From NCBI GenBank assembly GCA_026023565.1, contig JAPETS010000020.1, positions 310,001-374,000 of the forward strand: a stretch of DNA of 64,000 nt. Reading direction: 5' to 3'. Below, in pieces: positions 4,901 through 64,000 of this stretch (the stretch's first letter is position 1; the number at the start of each line of letters is the position of its first letter). Position numbers and translations under genes: made by a program. The stretch comes from Cirrosporium novae-zelandiae. Its lineage: Eukaryota. The notes below the pieces were generated by a model that searched no databases, was not told the origin of the DNA, and saw only the letters and a program-made list of their open reading frames with translations.

Positions 4901-5758
4901 TTCAGAAACAATGTCTCATCCAACGGAACCAAACGTTTGCTTTCTGGATATCATTGGGCCAACCATGCTCCTACAAAAAGGTAACAAATGGTCAGATTTA
5001 ACATGAATAATTTGTTTACAGAATGATTGGATTAAATCCTGGAGCAAGGTGAGACCGAGATTCAAGTGTTAAGCAGAGATAGAACCCACGAAGTCGCACC
5101 GGAGATTACACAATAATCCCATCAAATAAAAGGACAGGAAGACAAAGTGCAATCAAACATCCTTGATGTCATGGTGCACATTGATATGCTGGTTAAAGGG
5201 AAAGGGTCAAGAAATGTTGACAGACATGCAATATGCAGCAGACCCTTCCCCACCTATCTACGGTCATCTGCCATGGATGGATATGCTCCCCCGGAAATAT
5301 AATTCATCTTGATATTACCTTTTCAGCACGGGGACTCTGGAGATAGGTTAGAAAGATCCTCGATCGACATTATGATTAATCAATAACCCCTACAGTTCTC
5401 GGATCAACCCTTTGACGGCATCTTTGTCTTTCCCCACGGCTCATTCAGGTACAGGACGGTATATTTTTTATGGATCCGTCGAGGTCATTTCTCAACTATT
5501 AGAACTAAAGAGTGTCATCCCCATGATTCACGAGGCTGTCTTGCTAAGAGCAAGATAATTTCGATTTTATCTACCCTTGTCAAGGTTACGCTCGTTTTCA
5601 GCAAAAGGATCCCACCGAGAACACATTTCCTATCATTCTTTCATGTCTTTAAGATAGAGGATAGAATTGCAAAACTATTTTTCATTTCTAATCTTTCTTT
5701 AAGCACGGTATTAGCTCTATCACTCATTCACTTTTGATGTTACAATACTAGCAGAATC

Positions 5759-8313
5759 ATGGAAGCTCTTATAATCACGGTTCTTTTCGCGCTCGTCTTT
5801 CTTAGGGTAGAGGCAGATCCAACCTATTCGCCGGGTCGAGCTCCAGCTTTGCCCCTTGCAGTTCGATCTCCCTACACCAGTGCATGGAGTACTACAGCCT
5901 CAAATGGAACTTTGAACAGCAATAGCGTCATGTTTTGGCCTGGTAATGACGTTGGCTGGGAAGGCATAGTCAGTGTCGATGGGATATTCTACGAGTACCT
6001 TGGGATAGGCTCTAAGAATCTACCGAATCTTACGGATTTGACATCTGCAACTCCCTTGACAGTCAGTTATGACTCGCAATATTCAAATTTCACCTTTGCA
6101 GCTGGTCCCGTTACAGTTGAAGCAAGCTTCTTCTCCTCAGTCATTCCCAAGGATCTCTGTAGGACAAGCATTCCGTTGAGCTATTTCACCGCTTCGGTAG
6201 TCTCAACAGACTCTGCGCCACATGACATTCAATTTTATAGCGACGTCAATGCGGCCTGGATAACCTATGAATCCGATGTGGTGGTAGAATGGGATCTCTA
6301 TGAAGGAAGTACGCTTGTCAATGGCACAAATTCGACCGGACAGTCTTCTCCAATCTTTAGCTGGCTCGTTCATTTGCAGCAAGCGTATGAATTTTCCGAG
6401 AACAACCAATTTCCAGGATGGGGAAATTTTACATATTCTTCTACCAAAGGCCAAGCCAAGGCTTTCACATACGAAAGCGGTTTCTCAACAGACCTTCGTT
6501 ATAGGTTTGTGACGTATGAGAACCTACAGAACACCATTGACCAAAGGGCTCGGGGTTCAGGTGATCAAGAACCGGTATTTGCATTTTCCCATGACTTTGG
6601 TTCTGTAACCTCTGCTTCGGTACTATACACGATTGGATCAGTTCAACAACCAATAATTCGGTACTTGACTTGTGGTGGGGTGCTTCCTCTACAACCTTGG
6701 TGGGAATCTTGCTATGGCGATATTTATCAAATGATCAACTATCATTATAACGATTTCGCCAGCAGCGCTGCTTTGGGGGCAGCATTCGAATCGCAACTGA
6801 AGACCGATATCGACAAGTACTACCGTACTGAGGACGTCAAGGTATTCAGTAATAATAGTAATCCCGGTCGTGATCCGGTGTACTACCCCAATGGCACTAA
6901 GGGATTCATCCAGAGCACCGACCAGTTTGGACAAGAATATATCTTCAACCCTAATGATGGATTTGGTTTCTTGGATCCCAATAATTTCAGCGGTATAGCA
7001 ACTCCTGATGTTATGGAAGCGGAGTCCTATTATTCAATTGTCGCTCTATCTACCCGCCAGGTCATGGGCGCTTATGTTCTTGCTGTGCCTCCAGATCTCT
7101 CTTGTTTAAATAATTCGGACCCATCGGTCCCCCTAATGTTTCAGAAAGAAATATCCTCGGATGGAAACGTCAATACCGTCGATGTTATGTATCCAGCCAT
7201 GCCTTTCTTCCTATACGCAAATCCAGAACTTCTCAAGTATAACATGAACCCACTTTACCAGAACCAGGAATCTGGATTTTATCCCAATGGATACTCGATG
7301 CATGATTTAGGATCAAATTTCCCTAACGCAACAGGTCATGTCGAAGGAGACGACGAATATATGCCCGTGGAAGAAAGTGGCAACATGATTTTGATGACGT
7401 ATGCTTACTACAAATTTTCTGGAGACTCGTCCTATCTATCACAACACTATGCCAAGATGAACCAGTGGGCCCAGTATCTTCTAGAGTATAGTTTAATCCC
7501 AAGTAACCAACTTAGCACAGGTCAGTGTTCCTCTTTCCTGTTTCACTAAATTGACTCACAAATACTATAGACGATTTCGCCGGCACACTTGCAAACCAAA
7601 CAAATCTCGCACTAAAAGGTATCGTAGCCATCAAGGCCATGGCAGAGATTGCCAGCATTGTCGGCGCATCCTCAGATGCGGCCAACTTTTCCACAACAGC
7701 TGCAAATTATACTTCTCAATGGGAAGGGTTTGCCATCGATCCATCAGGGAACCACACCCTCCTAGCATACCAGTCCCGCTCCTCCTGGGGTCTATTATAT
7801 AACCTTTACCCGGACAAGCTCCTCAACCTTGGTACAATCCCCCAGTACATCTATGACATGGAAAGCAACTGGTACCCCACGGTATCGCAAATCTTCGGCG
7901 TCCCGCTCGATAGCAGACACTCCTACACGAAATCTGACTGGGAAATGTGGACAGCAGCGGTCTGCTCGCAGAGCACACGGCGTCTAATCATTGATGCGTT
8001 GGCTTACTGGTTGAACGAAACGACCACAAACCTGGCTTTTACGGACCTTTATGACACTATTACTGGAGTTTATCCGGTTAGCGATGGAAGCACGATCGAG
8101 TTTATTGCGAGGCCGGTGCAGGGTGGACAGTTTGCGCTGCTGGCATTGGGTGCTGAGGGAGAGACTGCGACTACGGGGACTGGTAGTAATAGTACGGTTC
8201 AAGTACGAAGGGCGGATGCTTTGCAAAGGAGGACTGCTGCTGCATCACGGCGTGGAAAACCTTTACGAATGCCACCTATCGCTGAGGCAAAAATCGCTGA
8301 TATTAACTCATAA
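5759..8313 (+). CDS. gtaA: Secreted glutaminase GtaA-family protein (DUF5127/DUF4965/DUF1793 architecture), copy 1
   Basis: Signal peptide; PALPLAVRSPY, KEISSDGNVNTVDV, HDLGSNFPNATGH, MPVEESGN, STDDFAG, YNLYPDKLL, TKSDWEMW, ARPVQGG. One intron 7521-7570. Confidence 0.9.
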
Positions 8314-25960: not shown

Positions 25961-27751
25961 TTACCCACTCCCAGTTCCACACCCCTGTAAAATCCCACTC
26001 GGCACCAAAGATCCCACAAGCAACATCCCAATCCAAGGACTCCTCACCAATCCCCCAATCTCCTCCGAAGCCAATCTCATCGCCTCCTTCATACTACCGG
26101 TACCGGCACCAGCACTAGTAGTAGTCGTAAATCCTTGATCCTGAATCCCTGAACTTGGGGTTGAGATTGGGGTTGCTGGTATGTATGATTCTCCGTTTTG
26201 GAAGGCATTCAGGGTTACCCCGCTATATAACGAAGGAGCTAGAATAATGATGAGCGTGCTGATAAGTTGGAGGATTGCGAAAATGTTTGTTGGGGATCTT
26301 AGGAGCGAGAGGGGCTTTGGGTTTGTTGTTTTGGGGGGAGGCGTTTGGCGTAGGGGGGAGAGAGTGAGGCGGATTGCGGATTGGAAGAGGAGGGAGAGTG
26401 TGGATGCGGTGGATAGGGGGAGGGTTTGAGTTAAGACTGTGGCAATGAGGGTGGTGGTGGTGAGCGTGTTGAGAAGAGTGGTGAGGAGTTGGGGGGATGT
26501 GAATGTGTGGTTGTGGTCTTGTTTTTCCTTGAAGACTTTATCTTTGTGGGATGCATTTTTGGAAGACAAGGCGACTCTGCCGCAGCATCCTGCATAGTGA
26601 CAACCGATACGACCGATAGCCTCACCGAGGGGAAACACTAGAGCTAGAGAAGCGAGCAGGTGAGTTCGATCCGAGGGATCCTCTATAAAAGGGATGAAAT
26701 TGACGCCTAAAGCACCGGCGAGCATGGCACCTTGAAGCCAGAAGCCACTTCGTGCGAATAGTTTCGAGCTGACTTGTCGATGGCTACCATTTTCAGCAAT
26801 AATAGCTGGGATACGTGCGCCCGCCAAAGCGATAAGGCCCGCTGATAGAAGCTGGAGACTCAGCTGGAAGGTGTTGGAGTTCTCAAGAGGGGCTTTTGGG
26901 GAGGTATGTGAGAAGATAAAAGTGGTGAGAATTGCTGTAGTGAAGGAGGCCGCACTGAAGAAGAGGCCGTAGAGTGGGAGCTTGTATCTCTGGAATAGGA
27001 GGAGGTGGGCTGGTTTTTCGGAGATGAAAGTTAGAATCTTTAGGGTTGATAGGTCAGACCGGGCAATATTGAAGATAAAGCGAGTATAAAGAAAGAGGGA
27101 GATGATGTTCATCCATAGTAATGGGTTTGAGAGGGTGTATTCTCCCAGAAATGAGGCGGCGTATACGATTGGTGGGACTCGGAGGAAAAGGAGCGAGAGC
27201 GTGTTGATAACGCGGACCCTGTAGGCCAAAGACGACGTGTCTGCTTTGAGGCCTTGATAGACCAGCATGCACGCTAGGTCCGAGAAGAGCTCTGTGAAAA
27301 GTGATGCGTAAATGGCGTAAATCGGTCGCAGTGGCAGCCGGAATTGGAGTTGATAAAGTAAGTAGCCAAGAGATGAGAGATGGTGGACTACGTATCCATT
27401 GGAGTAGTCCAATCTATTCAGCTCGGATATCCAGAGAACACCCCGCGAGGCCAGGCAAACTTGGCCTGCTGGAGATGATTTTTGTGGTTGGCCGAGGACG
27501 TCGTTGTCACTGGACGATTCTTGCAACGCTTGAAGACATATAGGAGTTGCAATAAGGGTAACGAATACGCCTATAGCGAAGGTCAAGTATCGCACGAGTG
27601 TCTGCTCTGCTTGCAAATGCTTATAGAGATTTGGGCTGACATGATGGAGCACCTTGCGACCAATTCTTTCTAGAATATAATAGGAGGAAAAATAAATTAA
27701 GAGTGATGACATGGACAGATAATCTGTCTCGGCTATGAAAGTGGTCTCCAT
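25961..27751 (-). CDS. Polytopic membrane protein: TLC (TRAM/LAG1/CLN8)-like N-terminal domain fused to a prolipoprotein diacylglyceryl transferase (Lgt)-like domain
   Basis: Intronless; probable ATG at 27751 (METTF), TATAAA about 50 nt upstream. TLC-like VVHHLSSL, FTELFSD, LFLRVP. Lgt-like LPLYGLFF, LAGARI, GFWLQGA, PLGEAIGRIGCHYAGCCG, SPQLL, SAIRLTLSPLR in canonical order. Confidence 0.75.
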   Translation of the reverse strand: METTFIAETDYLSMSSLLIYFSSYYILERIGRKVLHHVSPNLYKHLQAEQTLVRYLTFAIGVFVTLIATPICLQALQESSSDNDVLGQPQKSSPAGQVCLASRGVLWISELNRLDYSNGYVVHHLSSLGYLLYQLQFRLPLRPIYAIYASLFTELFSDLACMLVYQGLKADTSSLAYRVRVINTLSLLFLRVPPIVYAASFLGEYTLSNPLLWMNIISLFLYTRFIFNIARSDLSTLKILTFISEKPAHLLLFQRYKLPLYGLFFSAASFTTAILTTFIFSHTSPKAPLENSNTFQLSLQLLSAGLIALAGARIPAIIAENGSHRQVSSKLFARSGFWLQGAMLAGALGVNFIPFIEDPSDRTHLLASLALVFPLGEAIGRIGCHYAGCCGRVALSSKNASHKDKVFKEKQDHNHTFTSPQLLTTLLNTLTTTTLIATVLTQTLPLSTASTLSLLFQSAIRLTLSPLRQTPPPKTTNPKPLSLLRSPTNIFAILQLISTLIIILAPSLYSGVTLNAFQNGESYIPATPISTPSSGIQDQGFTTTTSAGAGTGSMKEAMRLASEEIGGLVRSPWIGMLLVGSLVPSGILQGCGTGSG

Positions 27752-28319
27752 GGCTTGAGTGACTTGAAAAAGTTGAAGCAAAGGAGCTGGGAGACTCGGA
27801 TTTATATCTATATTAACAAAGAAGGCATTTATCGGATATCTCCTTCGCCCAGCTCCGTCTGACTCAGAACTAATGCGTCTGATAGTCAACAACAGGATTT
27901 CTGCAAGAAGTCGCATTCAAAAGACTCAAAAGAAACCCACCAAAAGCCTTTATGGAATAGGGTCAATATATATACAGGGTAGTCTTGTGGATAGAAGAAG
28001 GCCATGTCTGTCAGATTGTACCAAATTATCAGTGCTAAATGTCAAAATCGGCCGATCCAAGCATCGAAATAATTAAAAAATACGGATTTCTTATGGGGGT
28101 CAACTTCGAGATTCCATAAAACTAAAGGGTGATAAGGATATATTTCCAGAAATAAACCAAAGCTAAACTAAAAAACCAAGGCTCGCCGAGCTGCCCGTTT
28201 CTGTATAGCTGCTTGTTGCGGAGGTACGTTAAACCCAATCTATGAGACCTCAAGTTCATCTTCCCTTTGAAAGAATCCTCCAATCTGTCATTTTATGAGA
28301 ATAATTGCAAAATTCTGCT

Positions 28320-49812: not shown

Positions 49813-51917
49813 TTACCTTCTACGCGTAGAAAGACCATTTGCTCCTTTCGACAGCGCAATCGATGCAAAATGACCTCCAATAGTTGGTCTAGCTCTGAAC
49901 GAATTGTAGTACCCACTCGTAGTGTAATAACGATCACTGAATGGTACCGTGTTCAATCCATTTGCAATGTAAGAATATAGGTTGTTGATTAACTTATCCC
50001 GGGTGGTATCGCCCGCAGCGGCGGCAGCCCACATCTGCCAATCTGTCTTGCCCCATGTGAGGGCACCATCGAGAGGTACGCCGTAAGTGGAGCCAACAGT
50101 TTGATAGAATTCGCTTTGCATATCAAGAGCGGCGGTGTCGAAGGTGTTTAGGTCGAGAAGCTTATCGGGGAAGAGATTGAATACCATGAACCAGGTGGAA
50201 GATCCATATTGAAGAGTGAAATAGGTCTGGGAAGTATCGGTTCCCAGACGCTCGTTGTAAATAGTGTGTGCAAAGGATGTTCCGATAGAAGAGTAGTTTG
50301 ATTGGGAGGTGAGATTTCCATAGGCAGAAAGGCCAACGGCAGCTTTAATTCCAAGATTGGTTTGATTGGCAATGGAACCAATTGCATCGTTGGTGGACAA
50401 CTGCTTTACTGGATACAGGCCATTGTCTACAAGGTAGTTGGCATATTTCAGGAAGAGGGCGCTGTACCCATCAGCCCAGTCGGTGTTTCCGGAGGCTACT
50501 TGATATGCGTAGGCGAGAATGAGAACATTTCCAGTTTCTTCAACAGGCATCTTTTCTTCCTGTGACAAGGGGTGGCCAGTTGCGTTGGGGTAATTGCTGC
50601 CAATATCATGAATGGCATATTCTTCGTCCCATACTCCGGAGGTGACGTATTCTAAAACGGGTTCGAGCAGCAGTCGGATCCATTCTGGATTGAGTAGATA
50701 GAAAATCGGGAATGTCGGGTATATAACATCCACAGTGTTAACATTCCCGTCGCTAGAGATTTCTTTTATAAAAGCCTTGGCGTCACTGGTGGAGAGAGTG
50801 TCGGCTGGAATCGTGAGGTCGATGCCACCTAGAATTTGGCGTGTGGATAGTGCCAATATGGCAGTATAATTGTCCGAAATAGAATCCCCTGCGCTTGATA
50901 TGGTTGAATCGACGCTGTCCGCTTCACTGCTTGCGCTATCGTAGTCATCCAAGAAATGGGCTACAGCAGGAACGGTATTCGCATAAGTTGCTCGATAATA
51001 GCCAGTTTGAGCAGATCCCAGATAATTGACAGCTGCTTCTCTGACATAACCTATGGCAAAGGTGACAGAGGTTGAGTTGTCCAAAGTGCCCAGGTCGTGC
51101 GCAAAGGCAGTCACACCGCCAGCTGTCCAGGACGAATGCCCACTCGACAATGAACCGCCAGAGACAAATTCACTACGAATTGTGGAGGCATCCCCCGAGG
51201 CTGATGTAACACTAGATCCTTCAGTAGCATAAACAGCCTCGCCCCAAAGAGCCATATCATTTGAATTTTGAGAGTATCTGGCTCGCCCATTAGCACTTAG
51301 CTGGTAGGCATAAGTGCTCCCAGAATTCGTGTAGTTCCAAGTGGTACTACTTGATTGACCCGTCCATGTATCATCAATATCAGAGTATATTTGCACTGAC
51401 GGAGAACTGCTGCCCGTGCTGTCGACGGATACAGTAAGATAGGAGAATGGAAGGGACTGGCGAACGTAGTTATTTAGCGAGACGGGGGATAGGAAATCGA
51501 GTGTGATATTTGCGGTTCCAGCCTTCAGGGAGAAGATGGAATGTGTAGATGTATATTCGCCACTGAGAACCGTTGCCGACTGAGTCCCCGACTCTGGATT
51601 GGGTACTCCAAACAGATTATATGTTTCATTATTGACACGAGCAATCACCGACCATGTCAAGTTATTGCCTGCCCAGAATTGGGGTGAGCTTGAGGGTAAG
51701 TTTGAGGCTTGACTACCCGGTAACCATGCTACAAGGATATTAGCTTCTGATAGAGGTCCGATTTGAAAGGGTATATACCTGAGAGGTAAGGATTCCGTAC
51801 TGCCAGAGGATACGAGGGAGGAAGTATGGGGGTGAATGTGGCACCACTGCAGGTCACGGTAAGTAAAGACAATACAGAAAGCGTCCAAACGCCCAGCTGT
51901 TTTGAAAGATCTTTCAT
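49813..51917 (-). CDS. gtaA: Secreted glutaminase GtaA-family protein, copy 2
   Basis: Exon 1 has a signal peptide and PPSYPLAVRNPYLS; intron 51778-51729; then AWLPG, KEISSDGNVNTVDV, HDIGSNYPNATGH, MPVEETGN, FNLFPDKLL, KTDWQMW, RPTIGGHF. Confidence 0.9.
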
Positions 51918-53728
51918 GGTGAATGATAGCGAACGATAGACCCAGAAACAAGAGTCTATGAAAGATGATTGCTAGGGGGAAACAAAAGGAACGGGTCTAG
52001 AGCAGTATTATATGGAAACCAACAATTCTGGCAATATCCAACCGCCTTTCCATTTCTTTTCCTCACCTGGGTCCCTTTGATCGAAATCCATCGCGCTCTA
52101 GCACTGGTTAAGCACGCCATTGCAGTAGCTAGTTGCTCCCAGTATTGAGTGTTTAGTAGTCTTTACACACAGGGGCAGTGGTGTACATTGAAGACTAAAA
52201 TGACGAGAGTAACATTGAGTAGCATGGGGCCTTGAAAGACAGTGGAGCACGAATGGACAATGAGTCGCATCAGTCGCATCAGTCGCATCAGTCGCATGTT
52301 TAATGCAGGACGAGAAAGAGACATGGGAAGGTTGTCAGGATGGGCTGGGTATGATAAGGTTAAGCATATATCTGATCCACTAAGAATAGTATTAATGACC
52401 AACTGTTGATCAGTTGACGCCGGTGAATGTCTCCCAACCTCAATAGAGTCATTTAGATGACTTTTGATATTGCTTGGAGTCTAGGAAGATGTTCACCGGA
52501 TATACACTGCCAAGGTATTAAAGGGGGACTAGTGTCAATATTTCTCCGCATTTCATAGTGAGAAACTGTCATGCCTCGAAATACGCCATAGCAACCGGCC
52601 ATGAGGCAAGTTAAGAGATGGATAGCGGGTGCTCCCGCTGACGGTGCCGCCGATATTGTAGTTGAAATATTTGAGGTTGATGGTTTTGCCAAGAAATGCC
52701 AACAACCACCATCCTGACCATCCCGACTATCCCGACTATCCCGACACCGCTAGACCTGCAAACATTGCAAACTCGAAGACATGGTAACAATGACGAGAAT
52801 CCTTTCAATCATTTCATCATCTTTCCCACAGCACTGTAACCTTTCGTTGATCAATCCTTTAGGAATCCAACAACACATACTACACATTCAGCACACTGCA
52901 GTAGTATCAGGAACATGGCAGCATGTGGCACTATCTGATAGGAGATTGACCTTCTATTCTGTGAGGTACAAAAGCAACGGTGAGTTCAAGGTTTCTTGTA
53001 CAGTCTGTTCACATTCTTCCATCCAATTGCGTGCAAATTCTTCAAGGATTCCTGTTTCATCTAGCATCATCGGGAAATTGCACTCTGTACCTTGCTTTAA
53101 CGTCTAAATATCCCTGCTCTATGATGTGGCTAGCTTCGACCAAGTCACTATCCCCGTCTCTGACTATTGGCACAAAGTTTTATCCTGTTGTGCTATTCAA
53201 AACAATAATTCTAAATTCACTTATTTGTATATGAACTACGTTATCCCAATTTCCATTGCCGACATGAAATGTTTCTCCATCAACCACAGAGGAGCGCCTA
53301 CGGTATTAACTAGGTATTAACTCCTTTGAAGATGACGAATCGGACCAGGTTTCTGGATAGATTCAGTGTTCTCAATAAATTAAGCTCAATCTACAGTACC
53401 CTGGACGCCGTACGCCAAGATCTCACAGGGAAACATGTCTTACACATCGGCGCACAAATCCAAGACAGATGAACATCCAATATAATCTTTACATAGGAGA
53501 TATGGACAAGTTCGTCAACAAAATTACGACGTTTCGTTTGATATACAGCATTAAGCCCTTGAAATACTGTGTAGTTAAACAACTAGGTTCTTAGTGGGTG
53601 CCAAAAACAGCAACGTTTACCAATTTATATCGGGAAGTCTCTACACAAAATGGGCACAGGTATGCTTGTAGAAAGCTAAATACTATTGATCTAGGGCTGT
53701 AGGTTTAGTCGAGAACGTTGAAACCTTT

Positions 53729-57349: not shown

Positions 57350-59560
57350 GTAAACATGCAAGAGCATCCATCCCATCCCATCTACCATTCACTCATTTCA
57401 TTTCACTTTCCCCTAGCTATAAACTAAAAGGACTTGATTAATTAACTACCCCTCATCCCATCCCTCATCCCCGTGTTACATAGCATAGCCTAAAACCACT
57501 AGAACCAATCAATGGATCAATCAATCAATCAATCAGTAAATATACGTCTCTCTCTTCTCTCCCCCCTCCTCACCCCCTCTTCTCCCCCAAATCCAAAATC
57601 CTAAATCTTCAAACCAAAAGATCCATATACACCTCCCTACTTACCTACATACAATACAACACGATACAATTACAGCATAAAAAAAAACATACGAACACTC
57701 CTATCCTATTATATTATGTTATATAGATAAATATTACTACTCACTACCAACCTTTTTTCTTTTTTTTTTACTTTTTATATCACTTTTATTTTGGAGAATT
57801 TGGGTTGGATTTGGATGTTTACTTGTTTTTTTGGTTTGGTTCAGTTGGTTGGTTGATAATGCTGAAAAATAATGAAGATGAAAGATATCGATATTTGATG
57901 GGTTGTCATTGTTGTTATTGTTATTACTGTCAGGACTTCAAGACGTGATGTTGTGTTTTAAATATCCAAATCTAATCCAAATCCAATCCCACATCCCACA
58001 TCCCCTTACCAGCTGTCATCCCTTATCACCTATCATCCCCCCCCGCCAAAACCACCATACAAATAACATATCCACCAAAACCCCCAGAAACTCCACGCAT
58101 CCGAAAAAAGGGAAAAAGGGGAAAGGAAAAGATATTCAAATAGATAATTAACTAATAATAATTGGACGACCGAGCGATTCGAAAAAAAAAATGTTTTGTT
58201 TAATAAATTTGTTTTTTGTTTAGTAAGCTATACATAAGCTGTAATGTGTAATTAGTTATGTTAATTATTTTTATGTAGCTATGTAGAATGAGGAAAAAGG
58301 AAAAAAACCTTTTTCTCGTTTTCTCTTTTTCATTTCTTTTCAGGATTAGGAATAATTATAGATACTGGGTCGACTATATCTTGATACGGCATATACTGTA
58401 AAGAGAGAAAGGGCTTAAAACATTATGAACAACTGTCTGCGTAGGAATTTTTTTTTTGTGTAGGGTTGCTTTTGGAGGTGATATACATACATACACATCC
58501 AACCAAACCGTTCAAGCTGTACCTATATACCTATATAACTATATAACTATATAACCATACACGTAACCATACACGTAACCATCAATACCCCCCCCCCCCC
58601 CCCCAAAACTAAATCAAATTAAATCAACTCAAACCCAACAACAACAACAATAAAACCTTATAACATCCCATACCACACTCAACACGTATCTACCTATACC
58701 CAATAACACCTTAAAAAATAACCTACCAACCCACCCGCTTTTAAATTCATTCATTCCAAATGCCTTCCCTTAGGCACACACAACAGCTGGATATACTATG
58801 GATACTATAGATCAGATCAGATCAGGTGACGTGGCCCACGCATCTAGTCTAGCCCGTGCTCGTGTTCGCACCTCCCACCCTCCCTCCCTCCTTATTTATA
58901 TACCTAGGCTAGATATTCACGGCTAGTTTGTTTGTCTGTAGATTTGAATGAATGGGGCAACAAATTTAATGAATGAATTAACACCTTTTTCTTTAGTATG
59001 GGATTGATTGATGCGGAGAAGTGTTGAAGGATAATTTCGGAGGATTGTGTGCTGAGGGTGGGTTGGGGATGGTTATGTGGGAAGAAAGTGCCTTGTTGAG
59101 GGTTGGTATGGTATGTGTTTTGAGGGGGTTGTTAGTCTGGAGTCTAGACTTGATTGGGTTGGACTGGAAGGTGTTGAGTATGTTGGATCTTGGTTCGTAC
59201 GTATAAGTATTTATGTATGTGAGCTGTGGCAAATGTACAAATAAATCAAACGAGACTCGGTTATCTTGGGGTTTGGGGTGTACTGTTTTGGGGGTGTAGG
59301 AGGTTAGTTTTTGGCCGTGATGGAGTTTCGTTAGTTATAGGTATTGTTATAATGCTTCGCGTATATTAAGCCATGGTATGGTAATCAAGTAACCTAGACG
59401 TCTTTTGATAGGGTAGCGGGGTTTGGGGGGTTGTGCGTATGTATCATGATTGTGAATACTGTTTTTTGGGGGGGTTGGAAAGGAAAAGGACTTGGGGTTT
59501 GTTGTTTATCAAGATGAACAACTAGGTTACAATGCATGAATGAGTAAATGAGTGACCAGG
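57350..59560. repeat. Long low-complexity intergenic tract
   Basis: Poly-C/A/T runs, (ATCA)n, (CAA)n, (GATCA)n, (TATAACTA)n; C-rich then G/T-rich strand skew; no credible ORF. Confidence 0.75.
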
Positions 59561-60195
59561 GGTTGATTTCGATTAACATTCGACAGCTGGATTTCTTTTT
59601 GGTCTTTGTTCGGCGGTAATTACGATATGCGCTTAAAGTTAATAAGGCTTGGCGGCTGGCGTTTAGAGCGCCTATACGGGTAGTTATAGTTTAGAGCATA
59701 TCACACTGCATATATTCTGTACACATTGCTTATCCACTCAATCGAATGTGCATTACCACGAAAATTTGGTAGACCAAGTTTATTTTCGAGAGGGTTGAAT
59801 GCAATGCCAAAAGGAATGAGAAAGGGCGCAAAGAGATTAAGAAAGACGTGTTCGAAGTTAGGGCCGTGGTAGTAAAAGAGCGGACGATAGTTATCGGAAT
59901 ATTTTTATTGAATTATTGGAAAATGAATGGGTGTTCCAAGTAAACCAATTGATGAGTGAGTATTTTTATAGCCTGTCGAGTAATATATTTGAGTCTCATG
60001 GGACAATGATTTAAAGGATATCAGCAAAATAAATCTTCAATTGAACATCGAAAGTTTATGGTATCCATCAAGTTGGCTGTACATTGAGAAGTCCATCCGT
60101 GAAACTACATCTAGCATGCATTAGTACTCTTGAATGAAATAAATCGCTAGGCGCGACCGAAAGTTGCTAATACTTCACAATTTGTCGAATTCAGC

Positions 60196-60708
60196 TTACC
60201 GGTCAAATAGTGTGGCATAGCCCTCAACGTTACCAAAAATCGCCAAGCCACTCCCTATAGCTTTACATTCTCTGTAGTCATGTCCTTGGCGTGTAGCGGT
60301 TCCATCTTGCCGGAAAACGTTTCCGACGATCATAATGCCTTTGCCCTCTTCTATGACACAAAGATATGTGCTTCTGCCTTTGCTGCCTTTGTCCGCAAGA
60401 TACTCCACACTAACTGTTATGGGTTCCCAGATTTGGTCGTCATCCACAACACGATGGCCGTCGGCGTTTCGGAGTGAAAATTTATCCAGATCAAGGCGCT
60501 GGTATCTGCTGACGGCATTTTTTATACTCAGCATCGGGTCCCCTGGGGTTACTTTGTAGACGACAGGGGCTTGGTCCGGCCCTAAATGATGGAATTTTGT
60601 TGGCAATGGTGGTGGGAAACTGATTCAAGTAAAGAAGGGGATTATACCCGTCACTGTAACTGGAATCTCATTATGTTGAGGAACAACGGTTCTAGGAAGG
60701 GACTGCAT
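60196..60708 (-). CDS. Ubiquitin/SUMO-like domain protein with a C-terminal HET-s-like two-repeat amyloid motif (148 aa)
   Basis: Exon 1 60708-60648 (MQSLPRTVVPQHNEIPVTVT), intron 60647-60582 (GTATAA..TTTAG), exon 2 60581-60196. N-part resembles a SUMO-type beta-grasp; C-part aligns without gaps to HET-s repeats R1 and R2 and the terminal GNxxGxxxFWD tail. Confidence 0.7.
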
Positions 60709-61841
60709 ATTTTCAAGTCTCGTCCAGTGATAATTGAAAATGATAATAAGTTGATTTGTGGTTCATGAAGGGGTTCGTGGGTTAAAAAGGTAGAAAATCG
60801 AATGGTTCGTTCACGGCTCGTGAAGGTCAGTAAGAATATCTATAATTTTAATAAAATGAACTCCCTACAAGGTATATCGTTAGACAGTACTAATGGAGAT
60901 AGTGTTATGATATTGAAAAACCGTCATGCTTACCGAGATCCTGAAGCCACTATGCAGTGTTGGTGGGTCATATCCGTAGCTAACTGGGTTATAATTAACT
61001 AAATGCCTGTGGATTAACGTTAATGTTGTCTGCATAATTTTTTTTCTTCTGGTCACTTTTTCTGTATCTGTTTTTCCCCGAATGGCTTCCACGGAAGCAT
61101 GGGCGTCCCCTGCTCCAACCACCCAGGTTGGATGGAAGATCAAATGAGGAGGTGTGAACGTTCTTGTATGAGATTATGCAGGTATCCTTGGTAGTAAACC
61201 AGAAAAGGACCTTCAAGGAATGAATCGGCAGATGATAAGGATGCTATTGTCGGTCATATTCGAATAAGGGGAAAGGGCTTGGTTAATCTATCCCAAGCCG
61301 AGCAAGTTAGGGATTCACGAGATAAGCTATGCTGCAAGTATACTGTATATGCTGCAAGTACGAGCAGAGATGAACATGGCAAATATGTGGCAGTACATGT
61401 AGTTTGATGGTTTGATACCAAAGTACTGTCTAGTGGATGCTGTGGAACTTGATGTAAATCATCGCAGGAAGATTGTTCTTGGCTGATCTCAGGTAGGCAG
61501 TAGGGGTTAATCACAACCAAACGTTGAGGCTGAGAGGCTGATTGGCGACTCATCTGCAGACTAGGCCGCCCCCCCATTTCAACACACATCACACATCCTT
61601 CATCAACATTTTCCACAAGCACAATCAAATATTTCGTGCGTTTCCCTACTCTCCCAAGGCTACCCTGTCCAATAGTTGGCAATTGAGCAGATATCACGAT
61701 TTCTTTCTTCCTTCCTTATCCTCCCCCCTTTGGAGATTCTGTTTTGCTAACTTGACCTGACTTCAAGCTCCTTTTGCCTTCTCGTCGTCGCCCATACCTA
61801 ACTAGCCTTTTGATTTTTACCGACCTCCATCTACTCACCTG

Positions 61842-62700
61842 ATGTTTGATCTGGACCTGATGAGGCTCTTCGCAAATGCTGCCCAATCTACCGATTATAC
61901 CTTCCATGTCACCAAAACCATCACAAAATTGTCTCGTAATATGCAGGATAGTTGAGTGACGCTTGATACACATAAGATGGATTCAAAGGCTCATGGGGCT
62001 TGCTTTGAGGATTTGCTGTAATGAATGCTTGCCAATACCAAGTGTAGATGCTGCTCTATGCTTACCAAGGCAGAACCGTTACCGGAAACCATTGATAAGC
62101 TGAAAGCTAATGCTTCCGAGAGATCCATTAAAAGGTACCCATATGTTTGGTTCAAGTACAAGGAGAAGATCTTACTCGGACTATTGGCGAGTTTAGAGGA
62201 GCAAAAAGTACATAACAATAGGGCGCATGCAGGAAGCCAATGCTATATCCATAAGCCATACGGGACCAACTGGCAAAATCTGTGGGGCCAGCCCAGAACC
62301 ATCAAATATGACATGTCAAGATATCCATCCTTAGAGATAACTCCCGTGCTTCAGCTGGCTCCTCATAAGTTTGACGTTGTTTTGATGCCACCATCCACGC
62401 TACTAGTGAGTCTCGGAACATTGCATCTCGACACGACAAGACATTCTTCAAGCCGTCCACATTGCTAGTGAGTCCTGCAATTCTTTGCCAACAACTTGAA
62501 TAGGAGCCTAGAATTTTCAAGCAGCTTGTGGGTCTTAAGATGCCCTGGCACCAGAACTTCAGCACGACTTTCGGCGTATCCGAGTCCTTGGTGATTCTAG
62601 AGACGTAGACAGTGATATTAGAGGTTTAGGTGTAGCAATCACAGCAGGACACCCCTACGAAGATGCACTAGCAGCAAGATACTCTCAACAGGACTAGTAG
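61842..62700 (+). pseudogene. Decayed SesA/HeLo-like N-terminal domain gene with C-terminal amyloid-motif-like repeats
   Basis: Frame from ATG 61842 reads MFDLDLMRLFANAAQSTDYTFHVTKTITKL...SIKRYPYVWFKYKEKILLGLLASLEEQK, with stops at 61953, 62019 and 62022. Bases 62560-62694 read QHDFRRIRVLGDSRDVDSDI...GHPYEDALAARYSQQD. Confidence 0.5.
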
Positions 62701-64000
62701 TGTCGATACTAATTTTGTTCTCAAGCTCATCTAGGAAGGATCATAAAAGGACGATCATGTGCAGTTCCCCGTGTGAAGAATAACATTGTGTCAGATGAAA
62801 TATTCCCTAGCACAGGTGGTGCATTGGGGTTGGGGGATTTCATGCAGAATATAATAGTTTCAAGTACCTTTGGTCGATACTTGACATGATGACTGCCTTA
62901 TTTCCTATTGAAAGATTCATAGGATTAAAACTAACCTTGGGGAGTATTTCACCTGACACCATAATACATGTGTTAATGATACTTGGTATAGTAACCCCTA
63001 TGAAATATGAGATAGCTTTGTTTCGAATGGTCGCGATTGCTACTTACCCAACTGTAATTCAGTTTTGGATGGGGTTCAGATGCGGGTGCCAGACAACGGA
63101 ATTGAGATATCCCGTGTACAAAAATTAAAAGGCAGGAGTAGATCTATGCCTTTCTGATGTCCGAGGGACGTCTGGATCCTCGGAAGTTCTCTGAGCACAG
63201 GTTCTGGGCACGATTTGGGAACCATGATGCAGTCCCTAGTCAAAATTTCGAACCTCTGAGTGAGGCCCTAGAACTTTGCGGGGGCATAAATCCAATTCTA
63301 TCCCTCGTAAAAGAAGTCTGCAGCCTGCCTTCCACCTGTGACTGTGGATATATTTCCTGGTTCACAGGAATTATGCAATGCATACTTCTCTGTACATGAT
63401 TGGATGGAACCGTGGCGCCATGCATTTCGGCAACAAGAACGAGAGAGCCATGCATTGGTTGTGACCCGGGAATTTCTTTCGATGACTTTGCTTATTCCGG
63501 GCGCGGACGACGTGAAGTTAACAGCATTGCATTCCAGCCCCAAAGGGATAAATGAAGCTTAGCGATGGGCAAGTATTTCGTCGGCCATCACAATTACGAC
63601 TACATCCATCTTTATTGAAAACTTTAACCTTGCAAAGGGAAACAATAGTCTTTTACTGTTATACAAGACCCTACGGCGTCATAAGGTCTTCTTGATATCA
63701 TCGACCAACTTTTCTGCATGTGCGTCTGCTGCAATCACAAGTATCTGACTTCGCCCAGAGATCGAGATGAGAAAACTTACATGTAGCACCCTGTATCTTC
63801 CCTGGTCGATCAAAAGTGAAAGAGTTGGTAGCTATAACTTGAAGACTTGTAAGGCCGAAGACTTAGGCTTCGGAGTCCATGGTGACATACCCGGAGGTCG
63901 ATAATCCCATCACACCCAGTAGGACACGTAAGATGAGAAATTGAGCTTATAAGCCTGAGGTTCACTCATATTCTAGACCGCAAAATCATAGGAACTGACC

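Follow-up and report, generated by a model that had tools for sequence, protein, structure and literature searches.

A locus of Cirrosporium novae-zelandiae, a fungus placed as an isolated lineage in the Xylobotryomycetes (PMC6712537), raises the question of whether a broken stretch of DNA beside the Ubl-HRAM gene is the remnant of a second gene with an amyloid motif. A preliminary description had read the stretch as a decayed SesA/HeLo-like gene with HRAM-like repeats. In our reading, to which a probability of about 0.6 is given, it is a pseudogene of a HeLo-like/SesA-type HRAM effector which formerly made up a two-effector pair with the Ubl-HRAM gene. This is the likeliest explanation because the N-terminal part has weak profile support, the repeat remnants lie at the expected end and on the same strand, and the total length is close to that of the genome's own intact HeLo-like HRAM gene.

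Layout of the locus

The window, i.e. the whole stretch of 64,000 nucleotides analyzed, corresponds to G000:C42:310001-374000, C42 being the contig label used for coordinates. The broken stretch, hereafter the relic, occupies positions 61842-62734 of the plus strand and is divergent to the Ubl-HRAM gene on the opposite strand, with 1,134 nt from ATG to ATG, in keeping with the divergent gene about 1.1 kb away described earlier. The features of the locus are as follows.

60196-60708, minus strand: Ubl-HRAM gene (148 aa), unbroken, with a predicted GT-AG intron at 60582-60647; M1834_003240
60226-60378, minus strand: HRAM pair of the Ubl gene (R1 60316-60378, 9-residue loop, R2 60226-60288), located with a hand-made model
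61842-62213, plus strand: relic of an N-terminal helical domain, SesA/PF17111-like; three stops in 124 codons, first among 7,356 windows by profile score, no Pfam match
62214-62556, plus strand: linker region, frame uncertain, several stops
62557-62619, plus strand: HRAM-like repeat 1, LQHDFRRIRVLGDSRDVDSDI, by motif comparison
62620-62643, plus strand: Gly-containing loop of 8 residues between the repeats
62644-62734, plus strand: HRAM-like repeat 2 and tail; TAG TAG inside the repeat, tail in another frame
63679-64000, minus strand: 3' end of a decayed GMC oxidoreductase gene, which runs past the window to about G000:C42:374970

The letters, breaks and layout of the relic can be read directly. 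All of the peptides quoted in the preliminary description are present within it, the helices in one frame and the repeats in another. The frame starting at the ATG at 61842 extends over 124 codons, carries both LFANAAQSTDY and KRYPYVWFKYKEKILLGLLASLEEQK, and is interrupted by stops at 61953 (TGA), 62019 (TAA) and 62022 (TGA). A second frame contains QHDFRRIRVLGDSRDVDSDI (62560-62619) and GHPYEDALAARYSQQ (62647-62691), with 8 codons between the 21-residue units, while a third holds TSSVDTNFVLKLI followed by a stop (62693-62734). Approximately 115 codons separate the 124-codon N-terminal frame from repeat 1, which is in a different frame. Altogether, three or more stops interrupt the first 124 codons of the relic, further stops follow downstream, and the frame changes. 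The linker includes a short direct duplication (62391-62412 and 62453-62474) and two GTGAGT donor-like sites, and showed no likeness to the linker of the intact gene of a cluster on another contig, C32, discussed below (31 of 40 shuffles scored as high).

One Logan contig, with a depth of 350, spans 59500-64000 without any difference, the breaks of the relic being present there too. Since this contig possibly derives from the same sample, it argues against an assembly error and not for other alleles. A search of sequencing runs returned one run with the sequence, possibly the source itself, and no RNA run among those listed. No classical RIP signature was seen at 61-63 kb (TpA/ApT 0.64-0.86), and no DNA-level duplication was found between the Ubl gene and the relic. 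An inverted repeat of 23 nt with 87% identity (62785-62807 and 62940-62962) is located directly downstream of the relic.

The GMC oxidoreductase relic is convergent with the HRAM relic and likewise carries stops and frame changes. Decay in this genome is both local and general, in that the GMC relic adjoins the HRAM relic and the NLR gene of the C32 cluster has three stops. A HET-domain gene (PF06985) lies about 13 kb downstream of the relic at G000:C42:385390-387204 (minus strand). Elsewhere in the window there are two glutaminase A-type genes, at 5738-8313 (plus strand) and 49813-51996 (minus strand), and a match to the LGT family at 25961-27916, which is unusual in a fungus.

The Ubl-HRAM gene

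The neighbour had been described as an intact Ubl-HRAM gene. Its protein is identical to the C. novae-zelandiae record M1834_003240, and "intact" holds in the sense of an unbroken predicted frame only. Two repeats of the His3 type are present, with Gly19 and the core pattern, R1 being off at position 10. With the hand-made HRAM model this pair scored 42.3 and the control pair of the C32 cluster 42.0, and these are the two best pairs among 358,948 starts (182 kb). The fold was assigned as ubiquitin/SUMO-like by Atlas structure search (TM 0.50 by query, 0.74 by hit). A single-chain model of the protein had a pLDDT of 32.5. Both the Ubl and the HRAM part of the earlier description were borne out by the fold assignment and the pair score. 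In its predicted layout the gene is effector-like, with two C-terminal repeats as in the relic.

The gene is present in single copy in the genome, without a paralogue. Searches for relatives of the protein returned only the protein itself; none of 243 stretches from metagenomes and none of 142 from prokaryotes could be confirmed, and a PDB sequence search was blank. An Atlas search with the Ubl tail gave nothing above the naming bar. A DNA pattern of the Ubl repeats had seven matches in metagenomes, and the six that were translated proved to be short chance frames. Relatives are scarce in part because the lineage is isolated. In the low-complexity DNA that separates the TauD gene from the end of the Ubl gene (58000-60000 of the window), the GC skew turns from -0.28 to +0.48.

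The N-terminal domain of the relic

Based on Pfam and NCBIfam searches at the model cut-offs, the relic has no match, including to SesA (PF17107) and PF17111 (HeLo-like; this model bears the name PigL_N in the Pfam copy used). It is not among the 9 SesA matches (stops read through) or the 13 PF17111 matches of its genome, and HHalign gave its N-terminal domain a probability of 0.7%. The SesA and Helo_like_N profiles, with which the preliminary description had proposed to check the assignment, did not recover it. A first HMMER profile, in which two rows were wrongly framed, gave no signal at the relic.

A second, home-made BLOSUM-averaged profile was built from 16 domains of the SesA/PF17111 type, 14 of them from this genome and the other two being database matches found with an alignment that already contained the relic; some members were chosen by eye and one parameter set was used. 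The background consisted of 7,356 overlapping windows of 124 codons, taken from 71 kb around the locus and from 16 other loci. The N-terminal frame of the relic scored 24.4, which was the highest value of all 7,356, followed by an unrelated coiled coil with 23.1, the best among the 7,329 windows not overlapping the relic on its strand. The score was equalled by 4 of 3,000 residue shuffles and by none of 3,000 block shuffles, and when the two halves of the frame were scored apart, 1 and 6 of 1,000 shuffles, respectively, were as high. True members, each left out in turn, scored 59-99 as compared with 24.4 for the relic, whose DNA scored 22.6 when read in antisense. The assignment to a decayed SesA/HeLo-like gene consequently stands as weak profile support with first rank, but no standard threshold was reached. 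The SesA/HeLo-like superfamily is marked by a four-helix bundle whose first helix is hydrophobic; a single-sequence model of the relic's domain was all-helical at low confidence (pLDDT 36, pTM 0.21). A similar end helix is shared by a family of short fungal helical proteins.

Attempts to find relatives of the relic were negative. A phmmer search of 1.84 billion representatives produced one match, a repetitive Ig-like protein, which was rejected. A word search confirmed 0 of 65 candidates, an alignment search gave 3 of 7,503 with repeats in none, and a search of the organism's own genome returned the locus itself and one unrelated coiled coil only. The KEK-L helix pattern had 16 matches in the genome as compared with 13 for a control pattern.

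The HRAM-like repeats of the relic

The published HRAM motif is characterized by Gly19 and hydrophobic residues at positions 5, 8, 10, 16 and 18, with His3 typical of HRAM3, and by loops of 6-18 residues between the repeats (PMC4518210). The relic agrees in having two repeats near the C-terminus, a loop of 8 residues, and a stop about 10 codons after repeat 2 in a shifted frame; neither the invariant Gly19 nor the hydrophobic pattern at positions 5, 8, 10, 16 and 18 is preserved. Repeat 1, which had been placed in the register of the Ubl gene's R2, fits at His3, Phe5, Ile8, Val10 and Arg15 but not at Asp16, Asp18 and Ser19, and a strict model leaves the repeat pair at chance level. The Ser codon AGT reported at the site of the invariant Gly is present, at position 19, and Asp16 and Asp18 are not attributable to a transition. 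The second repeat, AGHPYEDALAARYSQQD, is recognizable after the loop by its 8-codon spacing, His3 and Tyr5, with Ser14 and Gln16, but it is cut by TAG TAG at positions 18-19, so that its core positions 5, 8, 10, 16 and 18 read Tyr, Ala, Ala, Gln and stop. His3, the HRAM3 trait, and an aromatic residue at position 5 are found in both relic repeats, and His3 is also found in R2 of the Ubl gene. The tail VDTNFVLKLI-stop, in the shifted frame, resembles by eye the HRAM tails published in file S1 of PMC4518210.

The hand-made HRAM model is a position-class model written from the text and file S1 of PMC4518210 with the candidates known beforehand. The relic pair scored 14.1, a value that 1,203 of 358,948 starts equal or exceed. 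For the chance tests, the 687 nt that follow the helical domain were compared with shuffles and real tiles. A strict HRAM pair was at chance level, with 284 of 600 shuffles and 510 of 926 tiles as good; allowing transitions these counts were 37/600 and 93/926, and allowing transitions and one frameshift they were 9/600 and 21/926 (p about 0.01-0.02). The local likeness of the 687 nt to the Ubl tail was equalled by 14 of 2,000 shuffles and 14 of 926 tiles, while BLASTP of the relic repeat frame against the Ubl protein gave nothing. The canonical HET-s domain (PF11558) had no match in the genome, and controls gave none either. As for the second amyloid-motif gene that had been postulated, remnants are present at the expected end and on the same strand, but a motif emerges only with decay tolerated. 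From these comparisons the ancestry of both the domain and the repeats is weakly indicated.

Among 359,668 21-mers, five unrelated ones match R2 of the Ubl gene equally well or better, and the best non-self match to the Ubl repeats is at 63827 (plus strand), outside the relic. Single motifs of such quality thus arise by chance, and the relic has to be judged by where its elements lie, how they pair and in which order they follow. The possibility of a third HRAM gene at 63375-63889 was rejected, since the 63827 motif overlaps the antisense of GMC pieces which are collinear and individually weak (E 0.06-5); the frames at 63375-63889 match nothing, and the 21-mer at 63827 is probably an antisense chance product of the GMC pseudogene. 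A further HRAM-like 21-mer, AMHTSLYMIGWNRGAMHFGNK, is situated between the relic and the GMC remains (63375-63437, plus strand); 35 of 358,948 starts score as high, and it is probably due to chance.

Search for a matching NLR

None of the 47 NACHT matches of the genome is located on C42. One of the 18 NB-ARC matches is, namely an NB-ARC-TPR NLR gene at G000:C42:445890-449129, 75 kb from the relic, which has its own long N-terminal domain (hydrolase-like by eye) and no HRAM-type single repeat in its open frame. No NLR was found among the 29 long frames scanned in the window, the remaining genes being metabolic. The His3 pattern matched none of 30 NACHT and 12 NB-ARC loci searched with 1.5 kb flanks, 23 weaker matches lying outside this set. 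In a single-repeat scan of the 30 NACHT loci, the Gln3-type repeat of C32 alone stood out (27.4, next 19.1), and it was also the best single repeat with the hand-made HRAM model. The same NACHT match was seen at G000:C35:424358 and C47:424359, and the near-identical coordinates suggest that a contig is duplicated in the assembly.

In the C32 cluster (G000:C32:228-231 kb), a PF17111 gene carrying two HRAM repeats of the Gln3 type stands head to head with a NACHT gene. There the decay is reversed, in that the effector exons are open whereas the NACHT NLR, with the matching single repeat, has three stops. The shared signalling circuit proposed for the relic and the Ubl gene was not substantiated, as both genes have the two-repeat layout of effectors and none of the NLR loci searched carries a single repeat that matches theirs. 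A receptor may have been lost or may be unlinked elsewhere in the genome. An adjacent NLR was reported for 98 of 155 HRAM genes and was missing for 57 (PMC4518210), so a missing NLR is common.

Comparison with known systems

The relic was compared with HELLF/FNT1 (HRAM5) and HET-S/NWD2 (HRAM1) of Podospora anserina and with the HRAM1-5 set of Daskalov et al. 2015 (PMC4518210). Its layout is like that of HELLF, HET-S and the HRAM1-5 set, with a helical N-terminus, two 21-residue repeats, a loop of 6-18 residues and a short tail within about 280-310 codons. The rows of file S1 that come closest by eye, Cocmi1_10342, Cocsa1_192976 and Melbi2_547107 (PMC4518210), share with the relic a His3 repeat, a short loop and an acidic-start tail with Phe. 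Unlike HELLF/FNT1 and HET-S/NWD2, the relic is broken, has lost Gly19 and two core positions, and has a divergent neighbour that is not an NLR gene, and no N-terminal single repeat was found at its locus.

Two-effector clusters with a common motif have been reported for sigma and PP (PMC3321046, PMC5485727), and both multi-effector clusters and pseudogenised members have been described (PMC3321046, PMC4344463). As in sesA/sesB/het-eN (sigma) and HELLP/SBP/PNT1 (PP), neighbours with different N-terminal domains have a similar C-terminal motif; the present locus differs in its HRAM motif, in a ubiquitin/SUMO-like domain in place of a lipase and in the missing NLR. In the nwd2 pseudogene of het-s strains one head-to-head member is likewise dead while the frame of the other is kept, but there the receptor was inactivated by a recent insertion, whereas here the presumed executioner is far decayed (PMC4344463). 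The C32 cluster also has an HRAM pair gene head to head with a partner and one broken member. It differs from the relic locus in its Gln3-type motif, its NACHT NLR partner and its open effector exons, and it has no likeness to the 3' part of the relic.

In the HET-S and HELLF models, the single repeat of an NLR templates the two repeats of the effector into a beta-solenoid, whereupon the membrane is damaged by the helical domain (PMC4518210; bioRxiv 2020.07.06.188508). By analogy with the HET-S/NWD2 and HELLF models, the ancestral protein of the relic would have been of the HeLo-like/SesA type, about 290 codons long and ending in two His3-type HRAM repeats, which the single repeat of a shared receptor would template into a beta-solenoid amyloid. 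Amyloid formation would release the helical domain, leading to membrane damage and cell death. The membrane targeting ascribed earlier to the decayed effector is extrapolated from its putative family only. The locus would represent a two-effector cluster, with a helical executioner and a SUMO-like second output, whose NLR was lost or is unlinked. At present the relic would be without a product and the frame of the SUMO-like gene still open.

Alternative explanations

A real SesA/HeLo-like domain relic, for example of a truncated STAND gene, might be followed by repeats which are chance look-alikes, and there would then be no second amyloid-motif gene. We regard this as unlikely. In its favor, the repeat evidence emerges only as the model is relaxed (from 284 to 37 to 9 of 600 shuffles), Asp16 and Asp18 are not transition-derived, and five unrelated 21-mers do as well against R2; but chance would have to place two His-x-aromatic units in one frame, at the published spacing and just before a stop in the expected place, and the stretch downstream has no NACHT or NB-ARC match. 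It appears quite improbable that the relic is non-coding throughout, or a decayed gene of an unrelated kind, with both likenesses being by-eye pattern-matching. Every standard search was blank, the margin of the profile, for which some members were selected by eye, is thin, and the antisense frame reaches 22.6; yet two signals measured separately (p about 0.001 and 0.01-0.02) follow each other in the right order on a single strand, next to a clear HRAM pair.

A different arrangement, very unlikely in our estimation and drawn from the analogy of HET-s to HET-S, is a pair that needed no NLR, with the Ubl-HRAM protein as a harmless, prion-capable trigger or adaptor and the relic as its executioner. 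The head-to-head layout is that of nwd2/het-S (PMC4344463), the interval from the TauD gene to the GMC relic is seen to leave no room for an NLR, and both genes have His3 repeats, unlike the Gln3 system of C32. However, upstream triggers bear one N-terminal repeat and not two C-terminal ones (PMC4518210), the missing NLR is a common condition (57 of 155 published HRAM genes), and the arrangement rests on one genome. The relic is best taken, on this balance, as the probable pseudogene of one of two paired HRAM effectors.

Significance of the locus

A dead HeLo-like gene alone is ordinary, as dead members of such loci are already known (PMC4344463), and the novelty is mostly in the Ubl gene. In the parts of the literature covered, the amyloid-controlled effectors named are HeLo, HeLo-like, SesA, SesB, Goodbye, NAD and PNP_UDP, with no ubiquitin-like domain among them, and a search whose scope excluded most subscription papers revealed no paper joining a ubiquitin-like domain to an amyloid motif. 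In the accessible text of PMC9815663 the ubiquitin clan comes up solely in connection with Crinkler domains at NLR N-termini, and the supplementary tables of that paper may list Ubl-linked motifs. If the relic is real, the Ubl-HRAM gene once belonged to an amyloid-signalling locus, and a stray resemblance is then an unlikely explanation for its repeats; the relic lends modest support to the HRAM reading of that gene.

As an amyloid-controlled effector, a ubiquitin-like domain would extend the outputs of fungal amyloid signalling past pore formers and enzymes. It is highly doubtful that HET-s-type amyloid signalling has here a cargo of a new kind, the ubiquitin/SUMO-like domain, in an NLR-free pair, with the Ubl-HRAM protein triggering a HeLo-like executioner. 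Were such a pair real, the surviving Ubl-HRAM protein would be harmless and prion-capable, paralleling [Het-s] independently, and any strain that keeps an intact allele of the relic would be killed by, or incompatible with, this one.
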